DNA from: a virus | Taxonomy: Duplodnaviria > Heunggongvirae > Uroviricota > Caudoviricetes | Virus record (IMG/VR): IMGVR_UViG_2880361019_000008 | Strand: one strand, 5' to 3' | Length of the DNA stretch: 55,074 nt | Shown here: positions 15,621-45,723 of the stretch, piece after piece | How the letters are laid out: each line of letters begins with the position of its first letter | How positions within the stretch are numbered: position 1 is the first letter of the stretch | The notes under the pieces: model-generated | What the model was told of the DNA's origin: nothing | Seen by the model: only the letters and a program-made list of their open reading frames with translations | The model's database searches: none | Program-made: the position numbers and the translations under genes

Positions 15621-15699
15621 CCGTCACTAGCTCATCGGGAAAGAGCGAACAACGCCAGAGGTTGTTGTATGGTGCGGGGTTCGAGTCCCCGGTGACGGT
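15621..15699 (+). tRNA. tRNA-like element, probably degenerate (perfect acceptor and T arms, good D arm, irregular anticodon arm; no encoded CCA)
   Basis: 7-bp acceptor stem CCGTCAC/GTGACGG, T arm CGGGG-TTCGAGT-CCCCG, D stem GCTC/GAGC; anticodon region does not fit the canonical 5-bp stem plus 7-nt loop. Confidence 0.4.
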
Positions 15700-15729
15700 C
15701 CGGTTGCAATAATAAATTCATTTCAGACG

Positions 15730-25815: not shown

Positions 25816-27180
25816 ATGTGGAACTTTTTGCGACGAACCCGAAAAAACCAGAAATCAGGACGTGATGTAAAAGAGGTGGGCTGGACCAGCCTGTTTCAGG
25901 CGGTGGCTGAGCCCTTTGCCGGCGCCTGGCAGCAGGGTGTGAAAGCCGATCCGGAAAGTGTCCTCTCCTTTCATGCGGTGTTTTCTTGCATTTCGCTGAT
26001 ATCCCAGGATATCGCCAAAATGCGGCTGCGCCTGATGCAGACGGATACACAGGGGATCCGCCGTGAAAAACGGCAGGGGGATATTGCCCGCCTCTGTCGT
26101 CGTCCCAATGCACAGCAGAATCGTATCCAGTTTTTTGAACTGTGGCTGAACGCCAAACTGCGTCACGGCAATACGGTGGTGCTGAAAATCCGTAACTCCC
26201 GGGGGCAGATCAAAGAACTGCGTATTCTGGACTGGAGCCGGGTTGAACCTCTGGTGGCGGATGACGGCGAGGTGTTCTATCGCATCACGCCGGACCGGAA
26301 CTGCGGGATCACGGAGGCGGTGACGGTGCCTGCCCGGGAAGTGATCCACGACCGGTTTAACTGTTTTTTTCATCCGCTTGTGGGGCTGCCGCCGGTGTAT
26401 GCCGCCGGGCTGGCGGCCACGCAGGGGCATCATATTCAGGAAAATTCGACGTCTTTTTTCAGAAATGGCGGCAGGCCGTCCGGGGTGATTGAGATCCCCG
26501 GCAGTATTACGGAAGAAAAGGCGAAAAAACTGAAGAGCAACTGGGACAGCGGGTATACCGGCGAAAATGCGGGGAAAACGGCCATTCTGAGCAACGGGGC
26601 AAAATACAACCCCACGACGTTTTCACCGGTGGATGCGCAGACGGTGGAACAACTGAAGATGACCGCTGAAATTGTCTGTTCGGTGTTCCGTGTCCCGGCC
26701 TACAAGATTGGCGTTGGCCAGCCACCTTCCAGTGACAACGTGGAGGCGCTGGAGCAGCAGTATTATTCCCAGTGCCTGCAGACGCTGATTGAGTCCATTG
26801 AACTGTTACTGGATGAGGCGCTGGAAACGGGGGAAAACGAGAGTACGGAGTTTGACGTCACCACGCTGCTGAGAATGGACAGCGAACGGCGCATGAAAAC
26901 GCTGGGTGAGTCGGTGAAAAATACGCTTCTCACGCCCAATGAGGCCCGTAAACGTGAGAACCTGCCGCCCCTGGCCGGCGGTGATGCACTGTATCTTCAG
27001 CAGCAGAACTACAGTCTGGAGGCGCTGTCCCGTCGTGATGCCCGTGAAGATCCGTTTGCGTCGTCCGGGAAAAGAGTTTCAGCCCAACTGCCTGACGGCG
27101 CATCTGACGGTAATAAGGCAATCAGTGAAACAGAGCATGGTGCGGTGAAAGCGATGTTGAGGGGGATACTGCGAAAATGA
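25816..27180 (+). CDS. Portal protein (HK97 family)
   Basis: 454-aa ORF in head module; called by size and context. Confidence 0.7.
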   Translation: MWNFLRRTRKNQKSGRDVKEVGWTSLFQAVAEPFAGAWQQGVKADPESVLSFHAVFSCISLISQDIAKMRLRLMQTDTQGIRREKRQGDIARLCRRPNAQQNRIQFFELWLNAKLRHGNTVVLKIRNSRGQIKELRILDWSRVEPLVADDGEVFYRITPDRNCGITEAVTVPAREVIHDRFNCFFHPLVGLPPVYAAGLAATQGHHIQENSTSFFRNGGRPSGVIEIPGSITEEKAKKLKSNWDSGYTGENAGKTAILSNGAKYNPTTFSPVDAQTVEQLKMTAEIVCSVFRVPAYKIGVGQPPSSDNVEALEQQYYSQCLQTLIESIELLLDEALETGENESTEFDVTTLLRMDSERRMKTLGESVKNTLLTPNEARKRENLPPLAGGDALYLQQQNYSLEALSRRDAREDPFASSGKRVSAQLPDGASDGNKAISETEHGAVKAMLRGILRK

Positions 27181-28400
27181 CGGAACGGGAACTGTCCATT
27201 ATTCGTGCACTGGGAGAAGAATTCGCCACGGTGCTGGCGGATTTACAGCGCACATTTGAGGAGAAGATGGCCGCGCAGGCACAAGCGTTTGAAGAGAAAC
27301 TGGCTTCCCTGTCGGCGGTATTACAGAAGCATGTGACGGTGGATGAGGTACATCCGGTTCTGCAGGCGATGGTGGATGACGCTGTGGGGACCATTCCGGT
27401 ACCGCGTGATGGTCGTGATTATGATCCGGATGTACTGCAGCAGGCGGTGAATGATGCGGTTGCGAATATTCCGGTACCGGCGGACGGCAAAAGTATCACC
27501 CCCGATGATGTGCGTCCGATGCTTGAGCAGATGGTGAAAGAGGCCGTAAGCCATATCCCTGTTCCCCGCGATGGTCGTGATTACGATCCGGAAGTACTGA
27601 AGCAGGTGGTGAATGATGCTGTCGGGAGCATTCCTGTACCAGCAGACGGCAAAAGTATCACCCCCGATGATGTGCGTCCGATGCTTGAGCAGATGGTGAA
27701 AGAGGCGGTAAGCCATATTCCTGTTCCGCGTGATGGTCGTGACTACGATCCGGAAGTACTGAAGCAGGCGGTGAATGATGCGGTCGCGAAAATACCGGTG
27801 CCGGCAGACGGTAAAAGTATCACCCCGGATGATGTGCGTCCGATGCTTGAGCAGATGGTGAAGGAGGCGGTAAGCCATATTCCTGTTCCGAGCGACGGTC
27901 GTGACTATGATCCCGATGTTCTGCAGAAGGCGGTTCTGGATGCGGTGAGTGCCCTGCCGGCTCCGCAGGACGGGCGTGATGCTACGGCACTGGAAATACT
28001 CCCCGCCATTGACGATCAAAAATCCTTTCCCCGGGGCACGTATGCCACACACCAGGGCGGACTCTGGCGGGCGTATGAAAAAACGCACGGGATGCGGGGA
28101 TGGGAATGTCTGGTTGACGGGGTGGCGGATATTGACGTCAGCATGACGGGTGAACGGTTGTTCTCTGTGGTGGTCCGGCAGAGCAGTGGCCAGCGTACGG
28201 AAAAAACATTTTCCCTGCCGGTGATGCTCTACCGCGGTGTGTTCAGAGCCGGTGAAACCTACCACCCAGGCGATACAGTGACATGGGGGGGCTCGCTGTG
28301 GCACTGCAACAGTATGACCGGTGATAAACCCGGAGAAGCTCATTCATCAGCCTGGACCCTGGCTGCAAAACGTGGACGGGATGCTGGAGGCGGAAAATGA
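27177..28400 (+). CDS. Virion-associated protein with 47-aa tandem repeats (possible head decoration or fibre protein)
   Basis: Repeat unit IPVPRDGRDYDPEVLKQAVNDAV..IPVPADGKSITPDDVRPMLEQMVKEAVSH, about 3.5 copies. Confidence 0.55.
   Translation: MTERELSIIRALGEEFATVLADLQRTFEEKMAAQAQAFEEKLASLSAVLQKHVTVDEVHPVLQAMVDDAVGTIPVPRDGRDYDPDVLQQAVNDAVANIPVPADGKSITPDDVRPMLEQMVKEAVSHIPVPRDGRDYDPEVLKQVVNDAVGSIPVPADGKSITPDDVRPMLEQMVKEAVSHIPVPRDGRDYDPEVLKQAVNDAVAKIPVPADGKSITPDDVRPMLEQMVKEAVSHIPVPSDGRDYDPDVLQKAVLDAVSALPAPQDGRDATALEILPAIDDQKSFPRGTYATHQGGLWRAYEKTHGMRGWECLVDGVADIDVSMTGERLFSVVVRQSSGQRTEKTFSLPVMLYRGVFRAGETYHPGDTVTWGGSLWHCNSMTGDKPGEAHSSAWTLAAKRGRDAGGGK
27390..27960. repeat. Tandem 141-bp coding repeats (about 3.5 copies)
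   Basis: Near-identical DNA blocks visible between 27400 and 27900. Confidence 0.7.
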
Positions 28401-29527: not shown

Positions 29528-29868
29528 CGGAGGCGGATTTGTATCCTTATCTGGCGCATCTTGCCGGCGGGCAGGTGTACCCGTATGTGGTCCCCCTGCT
29601 GGATGGCAGGCCGTCGGTGGCGCTTCCGTGGGTGGTTTTCAGCCTGATTTCATCGGTGTCGGCGGACGTGATGGGCGGGCAGGCGGAGTCCTCAGTGTCG
29701 GTGCAGATAGACGTTTATGCCGGGACTGTGACGCAGGCGCGTCAGATACGTCAGGACGCCCGTGAAGCCATAATGCTGCTGGCCCCGGGATCCGTCAGTG
29801 AAATGCAGGACTATATTCCGGAAAACCGCTGTTACCGTGCAACCCTGGAGTTTCAGGTCACGGTGTGA
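29524..29868 (+). CDS. Tail completion/terminator-like protein
   Basis: 114-aa ORF, position. Confidence 0.5.
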   Translation: MTEADLYPYLAHLAGGQVYPYVVPLLDGRPSVALPWVVFSLISSVSADVMGGQAESSVSVQIDVYAGTVTQARQIRQDAREAIMLLAPGSVSEMQDYIPENRCYRATLEFQVTV

Positions 29869-29896
29869 CTTTTTCTTTTTTCTACAAAACCCATAC

Positions 29897-29917
29897 CCCG
29901 CCGCGTGCGGGTTTTTT
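29897..29917 (+). terminator. Terminator-like hairpin upstream of the major tail gene
   Basis: CCCGC-CGCGT-GCGGG followed by T6. Confidence 0.4.
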
Positions 29918-29933
29918 ATTATCAGGAGGCAGA

Positions 29934-30650
29934 ATGTCTGCTTTGTATGAACGCTCACAGCTGACGCAGGTGATGATTTCATCTGCCCCGGCGACGGCTG
30001 AAACTATGGATAAGGCGGAATATCTGCGCCTGGACTGCACCATCAAGGAAGTGCAGTTCACCGCCGGGCAGAAACAGGATATTGATGTGACCACGCTCTG
30101 CTCCACAGAGCAGGAGAACATCAACGGTCTGGGGGCGTCGTCCGAGATTTCCATGTCGGGTAATTTTTATCTGAATCAGGCCCAGAGCGCCCTGCGTGAT
30201 GCCTATGACAATGACACGGTGTATGCGTTTAAGGTGCAGTTTCCGTCCGGTAAGGGCTTTAAGTTCCTGGCGGAAGTGCGTCAGCACACCTGGTCATCCG
30301 GTACCAACGGCGTGGTGGCTGCAACGTTTTCACTTCGCCTGAAGGGTAAACCGGTGTCCTATGTGGTACCGCTGGCGTTTGTGAAAAATCTGGATAAGAC
30401 ACTTACCGTGAATACCGGTGCGCTGCTGACAATGTCAGTCAGTGTCAACGGGGGAACGCCGCCTTATAAACACGCCTGGAAGAAGGATGGTCAGCCGGTA
30501 GAGGGACAGACTACTGACACTTTCAGTAAAGCCAATACGCAGTCAGGTGATAAGGGGGCTTATACCTGCGAGGTAACGGATTCTGCAGAACAGCCGCAGA
30601 GCATTACCTCTGATGCGTGTACAGTAACGGTTAATGGTGCGGGCGGATAA
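29934..30650 (+). CDS. Major tail protein with C-terminal Ig-like domain
   Basis: ATG preceded by AGGAGG; C-terminal Ig-like segment (..GAYTCEVTDSAEQPQSITSDACTVTV). Confidence 0.7.
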   Translation: MSALYERSQLTQVMISSAPATAETMDKAEYLRLDCTIKEVQFTAGQKQDIDVTTLCSTEQENINGLGASSEISMSGNFYLNQAQSALRDAYDNDTVYAFKVQFPSGKGFKFLAEVRQHTWSSGTNGVVAATFSLRLKGKPVSYVVPLAFVKNLDKTLTVNTGALLTMSVSVNGGTPPYKHAWKKDGQPVEGQTTDTFSKANTQSGDKGAYTCEVTDSAEQPQSITSDACTVTVNGAGG

Positions 30651-30655
30651 GGCTT

Positions 30656-31030
30656 ATGGCAAAAGATCTGAAAACACTGGCGCTGGCCAGACTGTCGGGG
30701 TTCCGTCATAAAACGGTGAAGGTGCCGGAATGGGGAAATGTCAGCGTGGTGCTGCGGGAGCCTTCGGCAGAGGCCTGGTATCTGTGGCAGGAAGTGCTCA
30801 ATGGTGATGGAGAGGATGACGATACCCTGTCGGTGGTGGCGAAAACCCGCCGTAACCTGGAAGCGGATGTGACGCTGTTCTGCGATGTCCTGTGTGATAC
30901 GGACCTGCAACGGGTGTTCACTCCGGACGACCGTGAGCAGGTGCTGGCCGTCTATGGTCCGGTACATGCCCGGTTGCTGCGTCAGGCACTGGAACTGATC
31001 GCTGATGCAGAGTCGGCCAGAAAAAAGTAG
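30656..31030 (+). CDS. G: Tail assembly chaperone (lambda G analogue)
   Basis: 124-aa ORF ending at slippery heptamer A_AAA_AAG. Confidence 0.7.
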   Translation: MAKDLKTLALARLSGFRHKTVKVPEWGNVSVVLREPSAEAWYLWQEVLNGDGEDDDTLSVVAKTRRNLEADVTLFCDVLCDTDLQRVFTPDDREQVLAVYGPVHARLLRQALELIADAESARKK

Positions 31031-31335
31031 CCCGCCCGGAAATTCGCTTTCTGATGCGACTTGCGCTCCGTCTGGGGCGCACCTTATCCGAACTGCGCCA
31101 CAGCCTGAGTGCGAGCGAGGCGATGATGTGGATGGAGTTCGACAGGGTATCCCCGCTGGGTGATGAGCGCGGGGATATCCGTAATGCACAGATCGTGAAA
31201 GCGGTTTTCGGGGCACAGGGGATGAATGTTGCACTGAAGGACGCCATGCTCTGCTGGGGCGAGGATGAGGACAAGCCGGAGGTGGATCCGTTTGCGGCGC
31301 TGGAAGATGCGCTGAGCCTTGCAGCAATGTCATAA
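30656..31335 (+). CDS. Tail assembly chaperone G-T fusion (product of -1 frameshift)
   Basis: -1 frame after 31021-31027 reads KKVARPEIRFLMRLALRLG.. continuous with the 31054..31335 ORF. Confidence 0.6.
31021..31027 (+). promoter_or_regulatory. Programmed -1 ribosomal frameshift slippery site A_AAA_AAG
   Basis: Heptamer in G frame 3 nt before G stop; -1 frame is open into the T-like ORF. Confidence 0.6.
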
Positions 31336-31385
31336 ATAATGATGAAAACCTGCTGTGGCAGTTTTTTTTGCCCGGAGAAAGGTGA

Positions 31386-34300
31386 ATGGCGACGTTACGT
31401 GAACTGATTATCAAAATTTCGGCAAATTCGCAGTCATTCCAGTCGGAGATCCAGCGGGCTTCCCGTATGGGCAGTGAATATTACCGGACCCTGCAGAATG
31501 GCGGGCGTCAGGCCGCTGCGGCAGCCCGGGAGCAGCGACGTGCCCTGGCAGAACTGAACAGCCAGTTGACGGAAATTCGCGGTTCTGCTGTCGGAATGGC
31601 TGGCGCATTTGCCGGTGCCTTTGCCACCGGACACCTGATTTCACTGGCTGATGAGTGGAGTTCCGTGAATGCCCGTCTGAAACAGGCATCACAGTCATCC
31701 GATGAATTTTCGTCATCACAGAAAGTGCTGATGGATATCAGCCAGCGGACAGGCACGGCATTTTCGGATAATGCGGCCCTGTTTGCCCGTTCGGCTGCCT
31801 CGATGCGTGAATATGGTTACAGTGCTGATGATGTGCTGAAGGTGACGGAGGCCATTTCCACGGGGCTGAAAATCTCCGGTGCCAGTACGGCTGAGGCGGG
31901 TTCGGTGATCACCCAGTTCAGCCAGGCGCTGGCACAGGGTGTGTTGCGCGGTGAGGAATTTAATTCGGTCAATGAAAGTGGTGACCGGATCATTCGTGCA
32001 CTGGCTGCAGGCATGGGCGTGGCCCGTAAAGATCTGAAGGCGATGGCGGACGACGGCAAACTGACGGCGGATAAAGTCGTGCCCGCGTTAATCAGCCAGC
32101 TGGGGACATTGCGTGATGAATATGCCGCCATGCCAGAAACGGTCTCTGACGGGATCACAAAGGTGGAAAACGCCTTTATGGCCTGGGTGGGTGGTGCGAA
32201 TGAGGCCAGCGGGGTGACGAAAACGCTCTCCGGCGTGCTGAACGGTGTTGCCGGACAGATTGATAATGTGGCAACAGCCGTGGGGGCACTGGTTGCCGTC
32301 GGGGTTGCCCGGTACTTTGGCAATATGGCCTCCGGAGCGATGTCTGCCACGGCAGGACTTGTGACGGCTGCACGTAATGAAGTTGCACTGGCGGAAGCAC
32401 AGTTCAGGGGAACGCAGATTGCCACGGCGCGGGCAAGAGCAGCCGTGTACCGTGCTCAGCAGGCCGTGGCGGCAGCCCGCGGGACGGAGATGCAGATTGC
32501 AGCAGAGGCCCGTCTGGCGGCCACACAGGAACGCCTGAACAGAAATATTGCTGCCAGAACCGCCGCCCAGAATGCGCTGAACAGTACAACGGCGGTGGGC
32601 TCACGTCTGATGAGCGGTGCGCTGGGACTGGTTGGAGGCGTACCCGGACTGGTGATGCTGGGAGCTGCCGCATGGTACACGCTGTACCAGAATCAGGAAC
32701 AGGCCAGGGAGTCTGCGCGCCAGTATGCACTGACGATAGATGAAATCGCGCATAAAACGCCATCAATGTCTCTGCCTGAAGCCTCAGATAACGAAGGGCG
32801 AACACGGGAGGCGCTGACAGAGCAAAACCGGCTGATTGATGAGCAGGCCAGCCGGGTGAAATCCCTGCAGGAAAAAATCGCCGGGTATCAGTATGTGCTG
32901 GCTAATCCGGGCTGGACGACCGGTAACGGCTTCATGATAAACCATCAGACATCGGTGAAAACTGTAACGGAAGAGCTTGCTCAGGCAACAGAGCAGCTTG
33001 CCGTTGAGCAGTCCCGTCTGGCACAGATGCAGGAAAAAGCGCAGTCCATTCAGGATGTGCTTGCCGGGCTGGAAGACCGTCGTGTGGCGTTAATTCGTCA
33101 GCAGGCGGCAGAGCAGAATAAGGTGTACCAGTCCATGCTGGTTATGAACGGTCAGCATACGGAATTCAACCGTCTGCTGGGGCTGGGGAATGAACTGCTT
33201 CAGCAGCGGCAGGGACTGGTGAATGTGCCGTTACGGCTGCCACAGGCCACTCAGGATGATAAACAGCAGAGTGCCCTGACAAAAACAGAGCGTGAGCTGG
33301 CCCTGTCCAGACTGAAAGGGGAAGAAAAAGAGCGTGTCCGACTGGGGTATGCGGCGGATGACCTCGGTTTTGTGGGTGATCCGTATCAGGAGGCGAGACA
33401 ACGTTATATCAGTAATGCCCTGGAAGCCTGGCGCAATAACGAGGCGAATAAACCCAAATCCCGGGGTGGAAAATCAGAGACGGAAAAAGCGGAAGACAGT
33501 TTTTCCCGGCTGCTGAAGCAGCAGAAAGAGCAACTGGCACTGGCCGGTCAGAACACGGAGCTGGCGAAGCTGAAGTACCAGACAGCGCTGGGTGAACTGA
33601 AAACCCTGTCGGAGATACAGAAGCAGGAGCTGCTGCGTAACGCGGCCCTGATTGACCAGCAAAAAATCCGGGAACAGTTGCGATCCCGGGAAGAGACCCT
33701 GAAGAATGATAATGTGGCTGCGTGTGCATCAAATGAAGCCGAACTGCTGGGGTACGGGCAGGGAGAACGAGCCAGGGAACGCATGCGGGAGTTGCAGCAG
33801 ATCCGCGACAGCTTCCGCCAGAAGGATGCGGACCTTCAGTCTCAGTATCAGACCGGGGATATCAGTGAGGATTTTTACAGACAGGCGCTGGCGCAGAATG
33901 CACAGTATCTGAGTGAACGTCTGAAAGAGCAGGAAGCCTTTTATGCCGAATCGGATGTGCAGCGTGCGGACTGGCAGAAAGGGCTGCTGGAGGGATTCAG
34001 TAACTGGGTGGATAATGCGTCCGATTACGCCTCACAGGCAGCACAGCTTGCGACGGAGGGGATCTCAGGGATGGTGAATAACATCACGGAGATGCTGAAC
34101 GGAAATAAAGTGGAATGGCGCAGCTGGGCCTCATCAGTGCTGCAGGAAATATCAAAAGTTCTTATGAATGCCGCGATTGTCAACGGAATTAAGACGGCGG
34201 CAAACGGTATGTCCGGTGCGGGAGGATTTCTCGGCAGCATTGGTGACTGGCTGGGCGGGGCGGTGGCCAATGCAAAAGGCGGCGTGTATACCTCGGCAAA

Positions 34301-34628
34301 CCTGAGTGCGTACAGCAACAGTATTGTGGATACGCCCACGTACTTTGCCTTTGCAAAAGGGGCCGGGCTGATGGGGGAGGCCGGACCTGAAGCCATTATG
34401 CCTCTGACGCGGGCGGCGGATGGCTCGCTGGGTGTGCGCGCGGTGGGTAGTATGTACGGCAGTGCGGGTCTGGTGTATTCCCCGGTCTACCATATCGCCA
34501 TTCAGAATGACGGGACTAATGGCCAGATAGGGCCGGAGGCGGCAGGCAGCCTTGTGCAACTGATTGACCAGCGGGTGCAGGCGGTGATGCTGTCCATGCG
34601 ACGTGACGGAGGAATGCTGAGTGGCTGA
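31386..34628 (+). CDS. H: Tail tape measure protein
   Basis: 1080-aa largely helical ORF in canonical position. Confidence 0.85.
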   Translation: MATLRELIIKISANSQSFQSEIQRASRMGSEYYRTLQNGGRQAAAAAREQRRALAELNSQLTEIRGSAVGMAGAFAGAFATGHLISLADEWSSVNARLKQASQSSDEFSSSQKVLMDISQRTGTAFSDNAALFARSAASMREYGYSADDVLKVTEAISTGLKISGASTAEAGSVITQFSQALAQGVLRGEEFNSVNESGDRIIRALAAGMGVARKDLKAMADDGKLTADKVVPALISQLGTLRDEYAAMPETVSDGITKVENAFMAWVGGANEASGVTKTLSGVLNGVAGQIDNVATAVGALVAVGVARYFGNMASGAMSATAGLVTAARNEVALAEAQFRGTQIATARARAAVYRAQQAVAAARGTEMQIAAEARLAATQERLNRNIAARTAAQNALNSTTAVGSRLMSGALGLVGGVPGLVMLGAAAWYTLYQNQEQARESARQYALTIDEIAHKTPSMSLPEASDNEGRTREALTEQNRLIDEQASRVKSLQEKIAGYQYVLANPGWTTGNGFMINHQTSVKTVTEELAQATEQLAVEQSRLAQMQEKAQSIQDVLAGLEDRRVALIRQQAAEQNKVYQSMLVMNGQHTEFNRLLGLGNELLQQRQGLVNVPLRLPQATQDDKQQSALTKTERELALSRLKGEEKERVRLGYAADDLGFVGDPYQEARQRYISNALEAWRNNEANKPKSRGGKSETEKAEDSFSRLLKQQKEQLALAGQNTELAKLKYQTALGELKTLSEIQKQELLRNAALIDQQKIREQLRSREETLKNDNVAACASNEAELLGYGQGERARERMRELQQIRDSFRQKDADLQSQYQTGDISEDFYRQALAQNAQYLSERLKEQEAFYAESDVQRADWQKGLLEGFSNWVDNASDYASQAAQLATEGISGMVNNITEMLNGNKVEWRSWASSVLQEISKVLMNAAIVNGIKTAANGMSGAGGFLGSIGDWLGGAVANAKGGVYTSANLSAYSNSIVDTPTYFAFAKGAGLMGEAGPEAIMPLTRAADGSLGVRAVGSMYGSAGLVYSPVYHIAIQNDGTNGQIGPEAAGSLVQLIDQRVQAVMLSMRRDGGMLSG

Positions 34629-34962
34629 GATAAAAACGCTGCATCTGGTCCCGCGTGAAGGGATGCAGGTGAGTGAGAAACCGTCGGTGGCGAGGGTACG
34701 GTTTGGTGACGGTTATGAACAGCGTCGCCCCACAGGGCTGAATCCTCAACTGAAGACGTTTCAGGCGGTGTTCCGGGTGATGGATGAGTCAACCCGGCGC
34801 TGGCTGGATGAATTTTTATCCTGGCATGGTGGTTACCGTGCCTTTTTGTGGCGACCGCCGAAACATAACCGGACGGTGAGGGTGGTGTGCCGGGAGTGGA
34901 GCGTCACGGATAACGCCCGGTACAGTGATTTCAGCTGTACGATTGAGCAGGTGGTGAACTGA
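34621..34962 (+). CDS. M: Minor tail protein M
   Basis: 113-aa ORF following tape measure gene. Confidence 0.8.
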   Translation: MAEIKTLHLVPREGMQVSEKPSVARVRFGDGYEQRRPTGLNPQLKTFQAVFRVMDESTRRWLDEFLSWHGGYRAFLWRPPKHNRTVRVVCREWSVTDNARYSDFSCTIEQVVN

Positions 34963-35660
34963 TGCAGAATATTCATGAAGAAAGCCTGAACGAGTCGGTT
35001 AAATCAGAACAGTCACCGCGGGTGGTGCTCTGGGAAATTGACCTGACGGTGCAGGGCGGTGAGCGCTATTTTTTCTGCAATGAACTGAATGAAAAAGGGG
35101 AGCCGGTCACCTGGCAGGGGCGTGAATATCAGGCGTACCCGATTGACGGCAGCGGCTTTGAGATGAACGGGAAGGGCAGCAGTGCCAGACCGTCGCTGAC
35201 GGTGTCCAATCTGTTTGGCCTTGTCACCGGAATGGCGGAGGACCTGCAGAGCCTGGTGGGGGCCACGGTGGTCCGCCGCCGGGTGTATGCCCGTTTTCTG
35301 GATGCGGTGAATTTTGTGGCGGGCAATCCGGAAGCGGACCCGGAGCAGGAGCTGAGTGACCGCTGGGTGGTGGAGCAGATGTCGCAGCTGACAGCCATGA
35401 CGGCCTCGTTTGTGCTGGCCACACCGACGGAGACGGACGGAGCGCTGTTTCCCGGTCGCATCATGCTGGCGAACACCTGTATGTGGGATTACCGGGGAGA
35501 TGAATGCGGGTATAACGGTCCTGCGGTGGCGGATGAGTTCGACAACCCCACCACGGATATCCGTAAGGACAGATGCAGCAAGTGCATGCGCGGGTGTGAG
35601 ATGCGCGGCATGGTGGCTAATTTTGGCGGTTTCCTTTCCATTAATAAACTTTCGCAGTAA
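34962..35660 (+). CDS. L: Minor tail protein L
   Basis: 232-aa ORF with C-terminal Cys cluster (CSKCMRGCEMRG). Confidence 0.85.
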   Translation: MQNIHEESLNESVKSEQSPRVVLWEIDLTVQGGERYFFCNELNEKGEPVTWQGREYQAYPIDGSGFEMNGKGSSARPSLTVSNLFGLVTGMAEDLQSLVGATVVRRRVYARFLDAVNFVAGNPEADPEQELSDRWVVEQMSQLTAMTASFVLATPTETDGALFPGRIMLANTCMWDYRGDECGYNGPAVADEFDNPTTDIRKDRCSKCMRGCEMRGMVANFGGFLSINKLSQ

Positions 35661-35670
35661 ATCCCGGTTT

Positions 35671-35988
35671 ATGACACAGACTGAATCAGCGATTCTGGCG
35701 CATGCCCGGCGGTGTGCGCCTGCGGAGTCTTGCGGCTTCGTGATAAGCACGCCGGAGGGTGACCGAACGAAGGCTGGTACCAGATACGTATTGCTGGTGA
35801 GGACACGGCACCGGAGGCGGTGTATGCCCGCCTTCACGAACAACTGGGTGAGGGAACGGTCATCCATATTGTGCCGCGACTGGCCGGTGCAGGGAAAGGC
35901 GGACTGCAGATTGTGCTGGGGGCGGCAGCCATCGTGGGCTCTTTCTTCACGGCCGGAGCATCGATGGCAGCCTGGGGTGCAGCGCTGA
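35671..35988 (+). pseudogene. K: Tail assembly protein K remnant: first about 30 codons of K fused out of frame to gene I sequence
   Basis: MTQTESAILAHARRCAPAESCGFVISTPEG matches remembered lambda K N-terminus, then an Arg-rich out-of-frame tail. Confidence 0.65.
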
Positions 35989-36281
35989 GTGCCGGCGGTT
36001 TTTCTGCCACCACGATGCTGTTTTCACTGGGTGCCAGCATGATACTGGGTGGTGTGGCACAGATGCTGGCCCCGAAGCCAAAAACACCGGAATACAGGGC
36101 AACGGATAACGGTAAACAGAACACGTACTTTTCGTCGCTGGATAACATGATTGCCCAGGGGAACCCGATGCCGGTGCCTTACGGTGAAATGCTGGTTGGC
36201 TCCCGGCGAATCTCCCAGGACATCAGCACCCGTGATGAAGGCGGGGGCGGAAAGGTCGTGGTTATCGGGCGGCAGGGGTAA
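35763..36281 (+). pseudogene. I: Tail assembly protein I, 5'-truncated by the K-I deletion
   Basis: Frame reads EGWYQIRIAG...HIVPRLAGAGKGGLQIVLGAAAIVGSFFTAG.., matching the middle and C-terminus of remembered lambda I; frame closed upstream by TGA at 35760. Confidence 0.65.
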
Positions 36282-36296
36282 AAAGAATAAAAAAAT

Positions 36297-36320
36297 CCCG
36301 CAGTGTTGCGGAACTGCGGG
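36297..36320 (-). terminator. Minus-strand intrinsic terminator downstream of sodC
   Basis: Hairpin CCCGCAGT-N8-ACTGCGGG with T-run on minus strand. Confidence 0.5.
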
Positions 36321-36438
36321 AGCGTTACGAAGATTGAGTGTAAGGAATTATTCTTATGTCACGACAAAAACATTAACTCAGAGAGGGAGGATGTGCCGTT
36401 CTTTTCAGGGAGAAAGGATTTATCGTCCTGAGGAATAA

Positions 36439-36462
36439 AGGTAAGGGGCCCGCCCCTTACCT
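36439..36462. terminator. Strong hairpin (possible bidirectional terminator) between I and sodC
   Basis: 10-bp stem AGGTAAGGGG/CCCCTTACCT with 4-nt loop, 7 nt from sodC stop. Confidence 0.45.
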
Positions 36463-36468
36463 GACTGA

Positions 36469-36996
36469 TTATTGAATGATGCCGCAGGCCATTCTCGCAC
36501 CACCACCGCCCAGGGGCTCCGGATGGTCATGATGGTTATCACCGCCAGCATGAAGCATGAGAGAACGCCCTTTAATCTCTTTTAATGAGTTCAGTCTCGG
36601 GGCCAGGACCGGGTAGTTCGCTTTTCCGTCATGCGTCACGAACAGCGCAGGGAGGTCGCCCAGGTGTCCATCCGGAGACCAGGGGCCAAGATGTTTGCCG
36701 GTGTTTTTCGGGTCAAAGTGACCGCCAGCCGATAATGCTGCGACCGGTTTTCCGTCTTTCAGTGCCGGGGCGCAATTTCCTTTTTCGTGCACATGAAAAC
36801 CATGAATGCCTTCAGACAGAGAGTGAAGGGCTGGTGTGAACAGCAGACCGTAGGGGGTCTCCTGAATGGTTATTTTTCCAATGCTGACTTCTTTTCCGTC
36901 AGCACTGACAAGGTTCATTGGGACTTCCTGTTCTGCTGCGTATCCGCATGATGCTGCTGTCAGCATGGCAATGGCAGCAATGATTTTACATTTCAT
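36469..36996 (-). CDS. sodC: Periplasmic Cu/Zn superoxide dismutase (prophage moron)
   Basis: 175-aa frame with signal peptide [21 protein letters not shown] and motifs [21 protein letters not shown]; opposite strand to tail genes. Confidence 0.9.
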
Positions 36997-39662
36997 AAAA
37001 CCCTCATTAATTCCGTTAACAGACTGAGCTTGCTGGTTACAGGGTAACAAACAGCGTTCTGATGATATCGCGCAATAGCTGTGCAATATCCTATCACTGC
37101 GATTAATAATACCAATTGAGAGGAACATTATGGGTAAAGGTGGCGGCAGGGCACACACGCCGGTTGAGGCAAAGGACAATCTTAAGTCCACGCAGCAGAT
37201 GATGAGCGTGATTGATGCCATTGGTGAAGGGCCGATTGAAGGTCCGGTGAAGGGGCTGCAGAGTATCCTGGTGAACAAAACCCCGCTGACGGACACGGAC
37301 GGTAATCCTGTGATACATGGTGTGACCGCGGTCTGGCGCGCCGGGGAGCAGGAGCAGACACCACCTGAAGGCTTTGAGTCCTCCGGGGCGGAAACCGCAC
37401 TGGGCGTGGAAGTGACGAAAGCAAAGCCGGTGACACGCACCATTACGTCCGCGAACATTGACCGCCTGCGGGTCACCTTCGGGGTGCAGTCACTGTTGGA
37501 GACCACCTCAAAGGGCGACCGTAATCCCTCTTCTGTCCGGCTGCTGATTCAGTTGCAGCGTAACGGTAACTGGGTGACGGAAAAGGATGTCACCATTAAC
37601 GGCAAGACCACCTCACAGTACCTGGCGTCGGTGATTCTGGATAATCTGCCTGAGCGGCCCTTTAACATCCGGATGGTCCGGGAGACAGCGGACAGCACCT
37701 CGGACCAGCTGCAGAATAAGACGCTCTGGTCGTCATACACCGAAATCATCGATGTGAAACAGTGCTACCCGAACACGGCGATTGTGGGGCTGCAGGTGGA
37801 TGCGGAGCAGTTTGGCGGTCAGCAGATGACGGTGAACTACCATATCCGAGGTCGCATCATCCAGGTGCCGTCAAACTATGACCCGGAAAAACGCACTTAC
37901 AGCGGCATCTGGGACGGCAGTCTGAAACCGGCATACAGCAACAACCCGGCCTGGTGCCTGTGGGACATGCTGACTCACCCGCGCTATGGCATGGGAAAAC
38001 GTCTGGGGGCGGCGGATGTGGACAAATGGGCGCTGTATGCCATTGCGCAGTACTGCGACCAGACGGTCCCGGATGGTTTCGGGGGCACAGAGCCGCGGAT
38101 GACCTTTAATGCGTACCTGTCACAACAGCGTAAGGCGTGGGACGTTCTCAGTGATTTCTGCTCGGCGATGCGCTGTATGCCGGTATGGAACGGCCAGACG
38201 CTGACGTTCGTTCAGGACCGCCCGTCGGATGTGGTGTGGCCGTACACCAACTGCGATGTGGTGGTGGATGATAACGGCGTGGGGTTTCGCTACAGCTTCA
38301 GCGCCCTGAAGGACCGCCACACGGCGGTGGAGGTGAATTACACCGACCCGCAGAACGGCTGGCAGACCTCCACGGAACTGGTGGAAGACCCGGAAGCCAT
38401 ACTGCGCTACGGGCGCAACCTGCTGAAGATGGATGCGTTCGGTTGCACCAGTCGCGGTCAGGCCCACCGTGCCGGGCTGTGGGTGATAAAGACCGGACTG
38501 CTGGAAACGCAGACGGTGGATTTCACGCTCGGGTCACAGGGGCTGCGTCACACACCCGGTGACATTATTGAAATCTGTGATAACGACTATGCCGGGACCA
38601 TGACCGGCGGACGTATCCTGTCCATCGATGCCGCCAGCCGCACCCTGACACTGGACCGTGAGGTGACCCTGCCGGAGACAGGTGCCACCACGGTGAACCT
38701 GATTAACGGCAGCGGTAAGCCGGTGAGCGTGGCCATCACTGCACACCCCGCGCCGGACCGGATACAGGTCAGCACCCTGCCTGATGGTGTGGAGACATAC
38801 GGTGTATGGGGACTCTCCCTGCCGTCACTGCGTCGTCGCCTGTTCCGCTGTGTCTCCATCCGGGAAAACACGGACGGCACCTTTGCCATCACGGCGGTGC
38901 AGCACGTACCGGAAAAAGAAGCCATCGTGGATAACGGGGCCAGCTTTGAGCCGCAGTCAGGCACCCTGAACAGCGTTATTCCACCGGCAGTGCAGCACCT
39001 GACGGTGGAGGTGAGCGCGGCTGACGGTCAGTATCTGGCACAGGCGAAATGGGACACGCCGCGGGTGGTGAAGGGTGTGCGCTTCAGTCTGCGCCTGACC
39101 AGCGGAAGCGGAGAAGACAGCCGTCTGGTGACCACCGCCATCACTGCGGATACAGAGCATCGTTTCGGTGGTCTGCCGCTCGGGGAATACACCCTGACAG
39201 TCAGGGCAATTAACAGTTATGGCCAGCAGGGCGAACCGGCCACCACCACCTTCCGGATTAACGCGCCAGCAAAACCCGCCACCATTGAACTGACGCCGGG
39301 GTATTTTCAGATAACGGCGGTACCGGTGCTGGCGGTGTATGACCCGACGGTGCAGTTTGAGTTCTGGTTTTCGGAAAAACGCATCACGAACACGGCACAG
39401 GTGGAAAAATCTGCCCGTTATCTGGGGAGCGGCAGTCAGTGGACTGTCCAGGGAAGCCGGATTAAGCCGGGGACGGATTTCTGGTTTTACGTGCGCAGCG
39501 TCAACCTGGTGGGGAAATCTGCGTTTGTGGAAGTCAGCGGGCAGCCCAGCAATGATGGTGAAGGGTATCTGGAATTTTTCCGGAAAAAAATAGGAAAACT
39601 GCATCTGGCTCAGGGGTGTGGGAACTGATAGATAACAGCCAGCTTGCAGATGAGATGGCGGA

Positions 39663-39667
39663 GATGA
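39663..39667. repeat. Target-site duplication GATGA (left copy) of the IS21-family insertion
   Basis: Same pentamer at 44711-44715; removing the IS and one copy restores ...[17 protein letters not shown]... Confidence 0.6.
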
Positions 39668-39860
39668 TGCGTATTTTCATGAAAGGAGATCACTCAATAA
39701 CTTCCATCGAGATCGGGTAATAACATTTGAACAGATCGCTGAATAACATCGATGGAGATCACTTTTGACTCATTTTGTTATTCAGTGATCTCCATCAATG
39801 TTATTGGAACTTCACAGGTGTGTTGATCTGTATCTTTTGCCATTCCGGTAAAGGATACCT

Positions 39861-40716
39861 ATGCCAACAGTTCCAATTTCTATGAGAAAACTTAAAGAAA
39901 TTCTTAGGCTTAAATACGGTGTTGGACTCAGCCATCGACAAATTGGTCGTAGTCTTGCAATCTCCCCTTCCGTTGTATCCAGATATGCTAATCGGGCGGC
40001 TCAACTTGGCATAAAGCAGTGGCCCTTACCTACAGGATGGGATGATACAAAACTAAAACATGCGTTCCTTCAGACCCAGGTTAAGATGAAGAAGCACTCT
40101 CTGCCTGACTGGGCTACAGTACACCGGGAACTGCGTAATAAATGCGTGACGCTGCAGCTACTCTGGGAAGAATACTGTGAGCGTAATCCAGGCGGTTTTT
40201 ACAGCTATAACCATTACTGCCGGATGTACCGTGAATGGCTCAAAACCACTTCACCATCAATGCGTCAGGTACATAAAGCTGGCGAAAAACTTTTCGTTGA
40301 TTACTGTGGACCTACCGTTGGCGTTACCGACCCTGAGACCGGAGAAATAAGAACTGCTCAGGTCATCGTAGCTGTTCTCGGGGCATCAAGTTACACATGG
40401 GCAGAGGCCACCTGGTCTCAGCAGCTTGAAGACTGGGTGATGAGTCATGTTCGCTGCTTCCAGTGGTTGGGTGGCGTTCCTGAACTTGTTGTTCCGGACA
40501 ATCTGAAAAGCGCCACATCCAGGGCATGTAAGTATGATCCTGACGTTAACCCTACCTACCAGCAGATGCTTGAGCATTATAATGTCGCAGTTTTGCCTGC
40601 GCGGCCACGTAAACCGAAAGATAAAGCCAAAGCTGAAGTTGGCGTTCAGGTTGTTGAACGCTGGATCATGGCCCGAATCAGGCATGAGATCTTCTACAGC
40701 CTTGCATCGCTTAATC
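39861..40716 (+). pseudogene. istA: IS21-family transposase IstA, N-terminal fragment (interrupted by IS66-family element)
   Basis: 302-aa ORF with HTH and integrase-core motifs; reading frame continues at 43171. Confidence 0.8.
40709..40716. repeat. Target-site duplication GCTTAATC (left copy) of the IS66-family insertion
   Basis: Identical 8-mer at 43171-43178 flanking GTAAGCG...CGCTTAC ends. Confidence 0.7.
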
Positions 40717-40797
40717 GTAAGCGTCGTCTCAGCACCGTCTGGCAGATCCTGAAATTCCTGAGAGAATAGTGGACACCAAATATGGTGGACGCTATCC

Positions 40798-41202
40798 ATG
40801 AAATCATTAACCGCAGTGCGTAAAAAAAGCCCTAATTATCCCGTTGAGTTCAAAATCAAAATGGTTGAACTCTCGCATCGACCAGAGATCTCCGTAGCGC
40901 AACTCGCTCGTGAGCATGGGATCAACGATAATTTGCTGTTCAAGTGGCGCCAGTACTGGCGCGAAGGAAAACTACGTCCTCCTTCAACAACAGAAAACAA
41001 CGTGCCTGAGCTGCTCCCGATAACACTTGATGCCGAAGATGTTGTCCCTACAACCTCCCCCCGGTCACAACCTGTAGCTGCTGCGACACCTGAATCACTC
41101 AATATCAGCTGTGAAGTGACGTTCCGGCACGGATCACTCCGTCTGAATGGTGCCATCAGCGAAAATATCCTGAACCTGCTGATACGGGAGCTCAAACGTT
41201 GA
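40798..41202 (+). CDS. IS66-family accessory protein (orf1/TnpA)
   Basis: 134-aa ORF, first of three IS66 ORFs. Confidence 0.85.
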   Translation: MKSLTAVRKKSPNYPVEFKIKMVELSHRPEISVAQLAREHGINDNLLFKWRQYWREGKLRPPSTTENNVPELLPITLDAEDVVPTTSPRSQPVAAATPESLNISCEVTFRHGSLRLNGAISENILNLLIRELKR

Positions 41203-41546
41203 TCCCATTACCATCAGGGACAAAGATCTGGCTGGTCGCTGGCATCACCGATATGAGAAACGGCTTCAACGGCCTGGCGGCAAAGGTGCAGACGACGCTG
41301 AAAGACGATCCGATGTCAGGTCACGTTTTTATCTTCCGTGGGCGTAATGGCAGTCAGGTAAAGCTCCTCTGGTCTACCGGCGATGGACTGTGTCTGCTGA
41401 CCAAACGGCTGGAGCGCGGCCGCTTCGCCTGGCCGTCAGCCCGGGATGGCAAAGTGTTCCTCACACCGGCACAGCTGGCGATGCTGCTGGAAGGTATCGA
41501 CTGGCGGCAGCCTAAAAGACTGCTTACGTCCCTGACTATGTTGTAA
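41199..41546 (+). CDS. IS66-family accessory protein (orf2/TnpB)
   Basis: 115-aa ORF overlapping orf1 stop. Confidence 0.85.
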   Translation: MIPLPSGTKIWLVAGITDMRNGFNGLAAKVQTTLKDDPMSGHVFIFRGRNGSQVKLLWSTGDGLCLLTKRLERGRFAWPSARDGKVFLTPAQLAMLLEGIDWRQPKRLLTSLTML

Positions 41547-41594
41547 GCCTCTTTATCCTGGTCGACGCTGAATGAGCCTGGTAATATACCCGGT

Positions 41595-43133
41595 ATGAGC
41601 AGCTCACTTCCTGACGATATCAATGCACTGAAACGTCTCCTTGCCGAACAGGAGGCGCTGAACCGTGCCCTGCAGGAAAAGCTGAACGAGCGTGAACGCG
41701 AAATAGACCATCTGCAGGCACAGCTGGATAAGCTGCGCCGGATGAACTTCGGCAGCCGCTCGGAAAAAGTCTCCCGTCGTATCGCACAGATGGAAGCTGA
41801 CCTGAAGGCACTTCAGAAAGAAAGTGATACCCTTACCGGTCGGGTTGACGACCCGGCCGTGCAGCGCCCGCTGCGTCAAACCCGCACCCGCAAACCGTTC
41901 CCCGAATCACTCCCCCGCGATGAAAAACGGCTGCTGCCGGCAGCGTCATGCTGCCCGGAATGTGGAGGCTCGCTGAGCTATCTGGGTGAGGATGCCGCCG
42001 AACAGCTGGAGCTGATGCGCAGCGCCTTCCGGGTTATCCGGACTGTACGTGAAAAGCATGCCTGTACTCAGTGCGATGCCATCGTGCAGGCCCCCGCGCC
42101 TTCACGGCCCATCGAGCGGGGTATCGCAGGACCGGGGCTGCTGGCCCGCGTGCTGATCTCAAAGTATGCAGAGCACACCCCGCTGTACCGCCAGTCTGAA
42201 ATGTACGGCCGCCAGGGCGTGGAGCTGAGTCGTTCACTGCTGTCGGGCTGGGTGGATGCATGCTGCCGGCTACTGTCACCGCTGGAAGAAGCGCTTCAGG
42301 ACTATGTGCTGACTGACGGTAAGCTCCATGCTGATGACACGCCTGTCCCGGTGCTGTTGCCAGGCAATAAGAAAACGAAGACCGGGCGGTTATGGACCTA
42401 CGTTCGTGACGACCGTAACGCCGGGTCAACGCTGGCGCCGGCGGTGTGGTTCGCTTACAGCCCGGACAGAAAAGGCATCCATCCGCAGACCCATCTTGCG
42501 GGGTTCAGTGGTGTACTGCAGGCGGATGCATACGCCGGGTTCAACGAGCTGTACCGGGATGGCCGGATAACGGAAGCCGCCTGTTGGGCTCACGCCCGCC
42601 GTAAAATCCACGATGTGCACGTTCGCACCCCGTCAGCCCTGACGGAGGAAGCGCTGAAACGGATCGGCGAACTGTACGCCATCGAGGCAGAGATAAGGGG
42701 AATGACGGCGGAGCAGCGCCTTGCCGAACGTCAGTTGAAAACGAAACCGCTGCTGAAATCCCTGGAAAGCTGGCTGCGTGAAAAGATGAAAACCCTGTCG
42801 CGACACTCAGAACTGGCGAAAGCGTTCGCATACGCCCTGAACCAGTGGCCGGCGCTGACGTACTATGCAGATGATGGCTGGGCTGAGGCGGACAATAACA
42901 TCGCTGAAAATGCGTTGCGGATGGTCAGTCTGGGCCGCAAAAACTACCTGTTCTTCGGTTCGGATCATGGAGGAGAGCGGGGAGCGCTGCTGTACAGCCT
43001 GATCGGGACGTGCAAACTGAACGGAGTGGAGCCAGAAAGCTACCTCCGCTATGTCCTTGACGTCATAGCCGACTGGCCGATAAACCGGGTCGGCGAACTG
43101 CTCCCCTGGCGCGTAGCACTGCCGACTGAATAA
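41595..43133 (+). CDS. IS66-family transposase (orf3)
   Basis: 512-aa ORF with N-terminal coiled coil and zinc-ribbon CPECGG. Confidence 0.9.
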
Positions 43134-43170
43134 CACATCCCCGTCAATACGGTTCTTGCTGCACGCTTAC

Positions 43171-43864
43171 GCTTAATCAGCGCATTCGGGAGTTGCTGGA
43201 AAGACTGAATAACAAAATAATGCAGAAGTTGGGTTATTCACGTGCAGAACTCTTCATCCAGCTTGATAAACCCGCACTGAAGCCTCTTCCTGAAGCCAGT
43301 TACAGTTACACCCTGGTGAAGAAAGTCAGAGTTCATGCCGATTACCACGTGGAAATCGACAAACATTACTACTCGGTTCCATGTTCGCTGTTAGGCCAGC
43401 AACTGGAAGCATGGATCTCCGGAGAACTGGTAAGACTCTTCAATCAGGGGCAGGAGGTTGCTGTGCACCCGCGCAAGCGTACTTATGGCTACAGTACCCG
43501 CAACGAGCACATGCCTGAAGCTCATCGACAGCATGCCACCTGGACGCCAGAGCGTCTTCTGGAATGGGCGGGGCACATAGGCAGTGAAACTCATAGTTAT
43601 GTGCTTCATATACTGAACTCTCGTCCACATCCGGAACAAAGCTATCGCTTCTGCCTTGGACTCCTGAACCTTCATAAAAAATACAGTAAAGCCAGACTTA
43701 ATGCAGCATGTGCAAGAGCTCTGAAAACAAAGGTATGGCGTCTGTCAGGTATTAAATCGATCCTGGAAAAAGGTCTGGATAAACAACCTGTTCAGGATCC
43801 AAAACCAGATCTGTTATCCACGATGGAACACGAAAACGTACGCGGCAGTGAGTATTACCACTGA
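43171..43864 (+). pseudogene. istA: IS21-family transposase IstA, C-terminal fragment
   Basis: Frame continuous with N-fragment once the IS66 element and one duplication copy are removed. Confidence 0.75.
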
Positions 43865-43875
43865 TACGGGATCCA

Positions 43876-44625
43876 ATGATGAATCATCTTTACGAACAAC
43901 TGACCGCACTTAAACTCACCGGCTTCCGTGATGCGCTTAAAAAGCAACTTGCTCAGCCGGGCACATACCAGGAGCTGGGCTTCGAAGAACGCCTGTCATT
44001 ACTGACAGCAGAAGAACTAACCTGCCGTGAAAACAGGAAGGCAGAGCGTCTGATCAAACATGCACGGTTCAGACTTAATGCTGAGTTATCAAAGCTGGAT
44101 TATCGTAACAATAGAGGGCTGGACAGGGCCCTCATCCGTTCACTCAGTCAGGGAAACTGGTTAACCCTGAAACAAAATATTTTACTGACCGGGGCCACCG
44201 GCAGCGGTAAAACGTTCCTGGCATGTGCACTTGGTCATAATGCCTGCCGACAGGGATACAAGGTCTACTATTATCGCCTTAAAGCGCTGATGGAACAGTG
44301 CTATCAGGGGCATGCTGATGGAAGATACAGCAAACTTTTGACCAGGCTGAATAATAGCGATCTGCTGCTTCTGGATGACTGGGGGCTGGAACCTCTCTCA
44401 TCAGAACAGCGTAGCGACCTGCTGGAAATAGTGGATCTGATGTACCAACGAGGCTCAATCATCGTAGTGAGCCAGTTGCCGGTGGAAAACTGGTACAAAA
44501 TGATCGGAGACTCCACACATGCGGATGCCATCCTAGATCGACTGGTTCATGGCAGTATCAAGATCGAACTTAAAGGAGAATCAATGCGGAAAATACAATC
44601 TCCGTTGACCGAAGGAGATCAGTGA
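43876..44625 (+). CDS. istB: IS21-family ATP-binding helper protein IstB
   Basis: 249-aa ORF with Walker A GATGSGKT and Walker B LLLLDDWG. Confidence 0.9.
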   Translation: MMNHLYEQLTALKLTGFRDALKKQLAQPGTYQELGFEERLSLLTAEELTCRENRKAERLIKHARFRLNAELSKLDYRNNRGLDRALIRSLSQGNWLTLKQNILLTGATGSGKTFLACALGHNACRQGYKVYYYRLKALMEQCYQGHADGRYSKLLTRLNNSDLLLLDDWGLEPLSSEQRSDLLEIVDLMYQRGSIIVVSQLPVENWYKMIGDSTHADAILDRLVHGSIKIELKGESMRKIQSPLTEGDQ

Positions 44626-44710
44626 AGGTAATTTAAAAACGGTTCTGTGAAAGTGACACGAACCGATCTCCATCGATGTTACTCACCGATCTCCTTCACG
44701 GTAATACGCA

Positions 44711-44715
44711 GATGA
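44711..44715. repeat. Target-site duplication GATGA (right copy) of the IS21-family insertion
   Basis: See left copy at 39663-39667. Confidence 0.6.
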
Positions 44716-45723
44716 AGACCAGCATCACGGAAACCCGCAATGAAATCACACAGACGGTCAGTAAAACACTGGAGAACCAGAGCGCCACCATACAGCAGAT
44801 ACAGCGCGTGCAGAAGGACACAAATGATGACCTGGCTGCGCTGTACATGCTGAAGGTTCAAAAAACGAAAGACGGCATTCCCTATGTGGCCGGGATTGGT
44901 GCAGGGATTGAGGATACTGATGGTCAGCCACTGAGCAACATACTGCTGCTGGCTGACCGTATCGCGATGATAAATCCGGAGAGCAGCAACAGCACGCCGT
45001 TATTTGTGGCGCAGGGGAATCAGCTGTTCATGAACGACGTGTTCCTGAAACGACTGTTTGCGGTGAGCATCACGTCATCCGGCAATCCTCCGGCATTTTC
45101 CCTGACGCCGGACGGGCGACTGACGGCGAAAAATGCGGATATCAGTGGCAGTGTGAATGCGAACTCAGGGACGCTCAACAACGTCACGATTAATGAGAAC
45201 TGTCAGATTAAGGGGAAACTGTCAGCCAACCAGATTGAAGGCGATATAGTCAAAACAGTGGGTAAGGCTTTTCCGCGGGACTCCCGGGCACCGGAGCGGT
45301 GGCCATCAGGGACCATTACCGTCAGGGTTTATGACGATCAGCCGTTTGACCGGCAGATTGTTATTCCGGCGGTGGCATTCAGTGGCGCTAAGCATGAGAG
45401 AGAGAGCATACTGATATTTACTCCTCATGCCGTCTGATAGTGCGGAAAAACGGTGCTGAAATTTATAACCGTACCGCGCTGGATAATACGCTGATTTACA
45501 GTGGCGTTATTGATATGCCTGCCGGTTCACGGTCACATGACGCTGGAGTTTTCGGTATCAGCATGGCTGGTGAATAACTGGTATCCCACAGCAAGTATCA
45601 GCGATTTGCTGGTTGTGGTGATGAAGAAAGCCACCGCAGGCATCAGTATCAGCTGAATTTTATAACCCATATACGGGCGCCAGAAATGGCGCCTTTTTTA
45701 TTGCAGAAAAGCGAGAGGTAATT

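Follow-up and report, generated by a model that had tools for sequence, protein, structure and literature searches.

Does the reading frame that starts at tail gene K in this lambdoid prophage mark a tail gene of unusual form, or does it mark the site where a deletion destroyed K and its neighbor I? The question matters beyond the two genes, as the answer determines whether the prophage could still build a tail and carry its cargo out of the host in its own virions. The window considered here is the whole stretch of DNA that was analyzed, 55,074 nucleotides long. It matches the chromosome of Escherichia albertii 2010C-3449 (CP034212.1), with positions 29820-42281 being 100% identical. This strain is a human isolate from 2010, assigned to ST5390 and stx-negative (PMC10673567). 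We consider it very probable that the K-I deletion abolished the function of both genes as part of the decay of a lambdoid prophage in this strain.

Locus layout

The gene order of the prophage is lambdoid from the integrase through the tail fibers and cargo, as defined by PHROG, Pfam, and NCBIfam matches. These include int, exo, a regulator, CII, replication, RusA, endolysin, terS, terL, capsid, and portal genes, followed on the tail side by the V-H-M-L tail genes, J, lom, and tail fiber. Within the late operon, H (31386-34628), M (34621-34962), and L (34962-35660) precede an ATG at 35671. The two landmarks that flank the lesion are the following.

34962..35660, + strand: tail gene L, intact, 232 aa, upstream neighbor of the lesion (Pfam Phage_tail_L full length, 308 bits)
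36469..36996, - strand: sodC (Cu/Zn superoxide dismutase), cargo gene between I and J (Pfam Sod_Cu, NCBIfam SodC equivalog)

The exact L protein carries the name "phage minor tail protein L [Escherichia albertii]". The placement of sodC between I and J is shared with intact relatives, including many STEC prophages. Two hairpin terminator-like sites (36462-36439 and 36321-36296) come after sodC, and late-operon transcription into J must cross both hairpins as well as the antisense sodC.

A 711-bp deletion joins K to I out of frame

Against a background of more than 1,800 relatives with intact genes, 711 bp are absent between window positions 35765 and 35766. This was established from BLAST blocks and from a column-by-column comparison with the prophage of E. 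coli SMN197SH3, the closest relative used for alignment, and with NZ_CP027582. The elements created by the loss are listed below.

35765..35766, + strand: deletion junction; both parental sequences share one G, at 35765
35671..35765, + strand: K remnant, 31 codons plus 2 nt of a 247-codon K (95/95 nt identical to the NZ_CP027582 K allele)
35766..36281, + strand: I remnant, codons 56-226 plus the stop (171 codons), aligning to lambda gpI residues 56-223
35671..35988, + strand: chimeric ORF of 105 aa by translation, 32 K residues followed by 73 out-of-frame residues from I

In the alignment to SMN197SH3, window 34900-35759 (L and the first 89 nt of K) is 96.0% identical and window 35765-37300 (I from codon 56, sodC, and J) is 99.1% identical, with 711 bp lying between the two aligned blocks in that prophage. 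The K allele of NZ_CP027582, a type found in many E. coli genomes, equals the window through 35765, and the I alleles of relatives match it without difference from 35765 on. An 81-mer query centered on the junction splits in the same manner, with bases 1-41 assigned to K and 41-81 to I, each at 100%. The junction thus falls inside the interval of about 35758-35770 that an earlier sequence-only reading of this DNA had proposed, and the exact loss bears out its estimate of roughly 0.7 kb missing from most of K and the 5' end of I.

A broader comparison gave the same picture. A 1,201-base query across the site found matches in 2,045 complete-genome E. coli records. Among the best 30 of these, the query was covered in two pieces spanning 1,907-1,915 bases, and all 30 of the best-scoring records listed hold roughly 706-714 extra bases relative to the window. 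Their annotation at this site reads L / C40 family peptidase / tail assembly protein / sodC in 30 of 30 cases. The best-listed phage records, which are Stx-converting phages, likewise covered the query in two pieces. Listed relatives, Stx phages included, carry an intact K (744 nt) and a full I. Because the flanks are 96-100% identical to the intact genes and the extra bases recur in each of the 30 listed records, the deletion fusion is, as judged from these alignments, not a product of chance.

The K frame occupies positions congruent to 1 modulo 3 and the I frame those congruent to 0 modulo 3. Intact phages read K and I in different frames, so that the join is out of frame even though 711 is a multiple of three. 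This agrees with the out-of-frame K-I fusion described earlier, and the I remnant aligns to gpI as that description implied. The chimeric ORF ends at a stop at 35986-35988, and its 105-aa product has no exact match among about 15 billion public protein sequences.

What remains of K

The ATG of the K remnant lies 11 nt after the L stop codon. From this start, the K reading frame matches intact K for 32 residues, MTQTESAILAHARRCAPAESCGFVISTPEGDR, and unrelated sequence follows. Both the K start at 35671 and the match of about 30 codons noted earlier are therefore correct. The remnant resembles members of the gpK family in its position directly downstream of L and in its N-terminal sequence, but 216 of the 247 codons are gone. 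Intact K contains a Prok-JAB domain at residues 3-105 and an NLPC_P60 domain at 111-224. The remnant falls short of the 25-bit Prok-JAB cutoff, reaching 20.9 bits over positions 3-40 of the 114-position profile, whereas intact K alleles score 57 bits over positions 3-113. An NlpC/P60 (C40 peptidase) domain was not found in the window K ORF by Pfam profile search. With most of JAB and all of NlpC/P60 missing, the ORF is a remnant and not a functional gpK member. Automatic annotation does not call it at all.

The sequence-only reading had likened this ORF to lambda K. The family assignment stands, but the match is to the 247-aa lambdoid K, and the lambda record itself gives a protein of 199 aa. 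In the lambda reference (J02459, region 14127-14290), the 199-aa K begins internally, at a Met, and 48 conserved codons of the N-terminus (MTQTESAIL...EPEA) are found just upstream in another frame, with a 1-nt difference relative to homologs. In the 247-aa K homologs, those codons hold the start of the JAB domain.

What remains of I

From 35766, the I frame reads NEGWYQIRIAGEDTAPEAVYARLHEQLGEGTVIHIVPRLAGAGKGG...VVVIGRQG and reaches its stop at 36279-36281. A TGA at 35760-35762 closes the same frame just upstream of the junction. The remnant is 71% identical to lambda gpI residues 56-223 by BLASTP and differs from the SMN197SH3 I allele at 2 of 516 nt. Codons 1-55 of 226 are gone from the gene, and with them its own start codon and the stretch that overlaps the 3' end of K. 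These counts refer to the 226-codon, lambda-like form of I, which LC567829 uses in its annotation and whose beginning is homologous to that of lambda gpI (MAATHTLPL...); in the shorter 193-codon form of PGAP, codons 23-193 are retained. The remnant had been described as the middle and C-terminus of I, which identifies the gene correctly and understates the extent, as the C-terminal three-quarters (171/226 codons) survive.

Intact I carries the Lambda_tail_I domain at residues 15-97. In the remnant, this profile (PF06805) yields 17.3 bits against a cutoff of 23.8 and is covered at positions 41-83 only; half of the N-terminal domain is lost. A start codon overlapping the 3' end of K, which gpI family members have, is likewise gone. 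The C-terminal hydrophobic, tip-forming region, homologous to lambda gpI 134-223, is still present. In lambda, gpI residues about 134-223 form a trimer in the tail-tip lumen of the virion (PMC10721106, PMC12617516). Position and residual sequence name the I and K remnants unambiguously, despite domain scores below the family cutoffs.

Within the I remnant, the earliest in-frame start codon is a GTG at 35820, preceded at a distance of only 2 nt by a GGAGG. Automatic annotation calls the resulting 153-aa product an ordinary "tail assembly protein". As the K remnant is not called, the lesion is invisible in gene tables.

A still-expressed remnant with a new role would need either translation of the I fragment from this GTG or a K'-'I fusion made by ribosomal frameshifting. 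Such a product might enter the membrane or hinder other lambdoid phages in assembling their tail tips. No stop interrupts the 171 codons of the I frame, which differs little from intact alleles; it keeps hydrophobic segments and the region that forms the lambda tail-tip trimer, a GGAGG precedes the GTG, and the region would still be transcribed by the late operon. The spacing of only 2 nt between GGAGG and GTG counts against such expression, and a promoter scan found no promoter-like site around the junction or the I remnant. A recent deletion explains the conservation equally well, and there are no other known carriers in which it could be tested. Programmed frameshifting at the junction was rejected, given that no slippery heptamer is seen just downstream and that the I-frame TGA stands just upstream. 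Expression in a new role is accordingly very unlikely. Much the same small probability is given to the narrower proposal that the C-terminal I fragment from GTG 35820 might act as a poison subunit or membrane protein against co-resident or superinfecting lambdoid phages. If true, the I remnant would work by accident against phages or competing prophages, at the level of tail-tip assembly or DNA entry.

Distribution and authenticity of the junction

Junction-spanning matches to the 81-mer were absent from 5,426 complete E. coli genomes (0 of 1,827 records with a match) and from 50,697 phage records (0 of 195 records with a match). The 44-mer and 23-mer queries found no match in 185,579 GTDB species-representative genomes, and neither did the 23-mer in JGI metagenome contigs. 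Functional relatives sharing exactly this short K and truncated I, which would have spoken against a lesion, are thus nowhere among the matching phage and E. coli records. As the searched collections hold no carriers of the junction, they offer no population for testing conservation of the remnant.

One further occurrence comes from a draft assembly. A 2,317-bp contig of GCA_043679955.1 is 100% identical to the window, junction included. Exact look-up of the 153-aa I ORF returned six contigs, of which one is the source and one is this identical draft contig. The remaining contigs shown come from draft E. coli assemblies; they start just 4-12 nt before the GTG and lack the junction. These other 153-aa calls are contig-edge annotation artifacts that mimic a truncated gene.

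An artifact of sequencing or assembly would mean that the genome holds intact K and I, and that 711 bp were dropped while similar lambdoid prophages were being assembled. E. coli genomes contain near-identical tail modules at 2 places in the median case and at as many as 13, and such modules are prone to misassembly. The breakpoints, however, lie in unique sequence with an overlap of 1 nt, which repeat collapse would not give, and the source is a finished 4.92-Mb chromosome. The identical junction in a second, separate draft (GCA_043679955.1, possibly from the same strain or clone) also makes an assembly artifact unlikely, and overall we assign this explanation only a slight probability. A natural short K/I variant used by functional phages is less credible still and can be set aside: its only hint is the same-sequence 153-aa "tail assembly protein" annotated in several E. 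coli drafts, but those calls begin at positions 4-12 of short contigs that lack the junction, none of the 195 phage and 1,827 E. coli records spans it, and the K remnant lacks its catalytic domain and is out of frame with I.

Independent lesions in J

The view that this prophage cannot form infectious virions unaided gains weight from the state of J, which follows sodC and is split into the parts listed here.

37130..39667, + strand: J N-terminal part (Pfam gpJ domains present; alignment to intact J)
39668..44710, + strand: ISEc12 (IS21 family) in J, with a 5-bp target duplication, GATGA
40717-43169: IS66-family element nested within ISEc12 (NCBIfam: IS66 transposase, TnpA, TnpB, IstB)
44711..45656, + strand: J C-terminal part (alignment and three-frame translation)

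A 1-nt deletion at about 39617 (288 nt here vs 289 nt in an intact 1,160-aa J) leads to a stop at 39626-39628. The ISEc12 copy is 100% identical, in two blocks, to the uninterrupted ISEc12 of a relative. Scored against the J allele of that relative, the C-terminal part carries 2 additional nt at about 45406, in a (GA)n run, and 1 additional nt at about 45526. Premature stops occur at 45435-45440, and the Pfam domain Ig_GpJ_C is covered at profile positions 1-49 of 135 only. The two C-terminal indels disrupt the receptor-binding C-terminus of J. In sum, J holds at least four independent lesions.

State of the remaining prophage and cargo

Outside the tail-tip module, the head, lysis, replication, and integration ORFs scanned (n = 20) still look full-length. 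PHROG and Pfam profiles are covered end to end for the integrase, exonuclease, regulator, CII-like protein, replication protein, RusA, endolysin, terS, terL, protease-capsid fusion, and head-tail connectors, and on the tail side for the major tail protein, H, M, and L. The cargo genes, comprising sodC, lom, an NleL-like HECT E3 effector, and an EspN/CNF-like effector, look intact. A cargo region at 48183-54525, downstream of the tail fiber genes, holds two notable ORFs. The first encodes a 782-aa, NleL/SopA-like type III effector, a HECT-type E3 ubiquitin ligase with pentapeptide repeats, and the second a 1,133-aa DUF4765 protein with a CNF1-like C-terminal region.

The portal deserves separate mention. 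Portal family phrog_2271 (859 aa) is represented here by two ORFs, 25816-27180 and 27177-28400, which overlap at ATGA. The difference from single-ORF alleles is a run of G5 rather than G6 at about 27160-27164, and PGAP flags the two-ORF portal as "frameshifted" in a relative. As a further lesion of this prophage, the split was rejected, for BP-4795 and most related (Stx-)phage records share the G5 two-ORF state. This state could reflect a pair of genes, programmed slippage on the G-run, or a defect that has become widespread.

The site at which Stx phages carry stx is occupied by other genes. These are a tRNA-Leu(CAG) gene at 15621-15701 and, at 16444-18294, the gene for a 616-aa phrog_143 protein, which in relatives is a SASA-family esterase. 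Between about 14980 and 16444, no ORF of at least 100 aa, and hence none of stxA size, was found.

The SMN197SH3 prophage offers a view of decay elsewhere in the family. Its K, I, and J are intact, while its tape-measure and holin genes are frameshifted and its terminase genes truncated. Members of this family hence decay at different genes.

Origin of the deletion

The deletion probably arose in one event of illegitimate recombination or replication slippage that joined K nt 95 to I nt 166 and removed 711 bp. A short repeat was found near the site.

35776..35783, + strand: the 8-mer GGTACCAG, which also begins at the left breakpoint in NZ_CP027582-type intact K alleles

The copy of GGTACCAG retained in I lies 10 nt downstream of the right breakpoint. 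Among random breakpoint pairs in the real K-I sequence, about 2% share an 8-mer within ±15 nt. Thus, the repeat adjoining both breakpoints may have aided misalignment. Simple slippage between the two 8-mers was rejected, as the retained copy only starts 10-11 nt past the junction. A deletion via a GAACG microhomology, present in the SMN197SH3 K allele, was likewise rejected, since the window follows the NZ_CP027582 type (GGTGACCG...) exactly to 35765. Slippage and end joining, within one prophage or between two, are all compatible with this single junction.

The remnants are almost undecayed, with 0 of 95 nt (K) and 2 of 516 nt (I) differing from intact alleles, and J carries several lesions. 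The near-identity of the K and I remnants suggests either a recent deletion or homogenization by recombination with other prophages.

Consequences for the tail and the cargo

In lambda, gpK is needed for tail assembly, yet it is absent from virions (PMC12617516, PMC10721106). The requirement for K and I assumed by the sequence-only reading is consistent with the same studies, in which gpK is required and gpI forms part of the tail tip. By analogy with lambda genetics and structures, this prophage would supply neither gpK nor gpI function, and tail-tip assembly could not proceed. J, the protein at which tail-tip assembly starts, has independently been destroyed by a frameshift, nested IS insertions, and two further indels. 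The tail-tip module thus appears to be dead several times over. The conclusion of a tail-defective prophage, drawn earlier from K and I, is upheld and was, if anything, understated in view of the independent lesions in J.

Inactivating lesions in virion-formation genes, as expected of a defective prophage, are present in the form of the K-I deletion and the J lesions. Together, these should make autonomous production of infectious particles essentially impossible, as far as can be told from the genes. As an induced prophage kills its host even with a damaged tail module, neutral decay is a better reading of these lesions than selection for a tamed prophage. In practical terms, the prophage counts as tail-defective, and its sodC, lom, NleL-like, and EspN/CNF-like cargo cannot leave E. 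albertii 2010C-3449 in its own virions. This cargo could be mobilized only if other lambdoid prophages assisted or recombined with the element. Defective lambdoid prophages of EHEC O157 can still be packaged, and even transferred, via co-resident prophages (PMC2669165). A comparable rescue, either in trans or through recombination with lambdoid prophages sharing the host, is conceivable for this element too.

Comparison with known systems

Defective lambdoid prophages are familiar from the cryptic prophages Rac, DLP12, and Qin of E. coli K-12. The present element fits this well-described class, and nothing about it is new in kind. Its closest counterparts by gene order are sodC-carrying STEC phages and prophages, such as the Stx2a phage Stx2_EH2201 (LC567829) and the SMN197SH3 prophage, which share the order H-M-L-K-I-sodC(-)-J-lom-tail fiber at 92-99% nucleotide identity. 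In contrast to the element studied here, they have K (744 nt) and I in full, and nothing interrupts their J.

At the level of single proteins, the window ORF has the first 32 residues of K and its place after L, K being represented by lambda gpK and its 247-aa homologs (the "C40 family peptidase" of PGAP), but 216 of 247 codons are missing, and with them most of JAB and all of NlpC/P60. For lambda gpI, the equivalents of residues 56-223 are kept here, including the virion-resolved segment 134/135-223 (PMC10721106, PMC12617516). Lambda gpI differs in possessing the start, the K overlap, and the 55 N-terminal codons that are missing from the window remnant.

The Sp prophages of EHEC O157 Sakai (Asadulghani et al. 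2009, PMC2669165) likewise combine a lambdoid backbone with virulence cargo and with frameshifts, deletions, and IS insertions in morphogenesis genes. They reside in E. coli rather than E. albertii, and this particular K-I deletion occurs in no E. coli genome searched. It adds one more well-resolved prophage decay event, with an exact junction and microhomology context, to the record of such elements and challenges nothing known about them.
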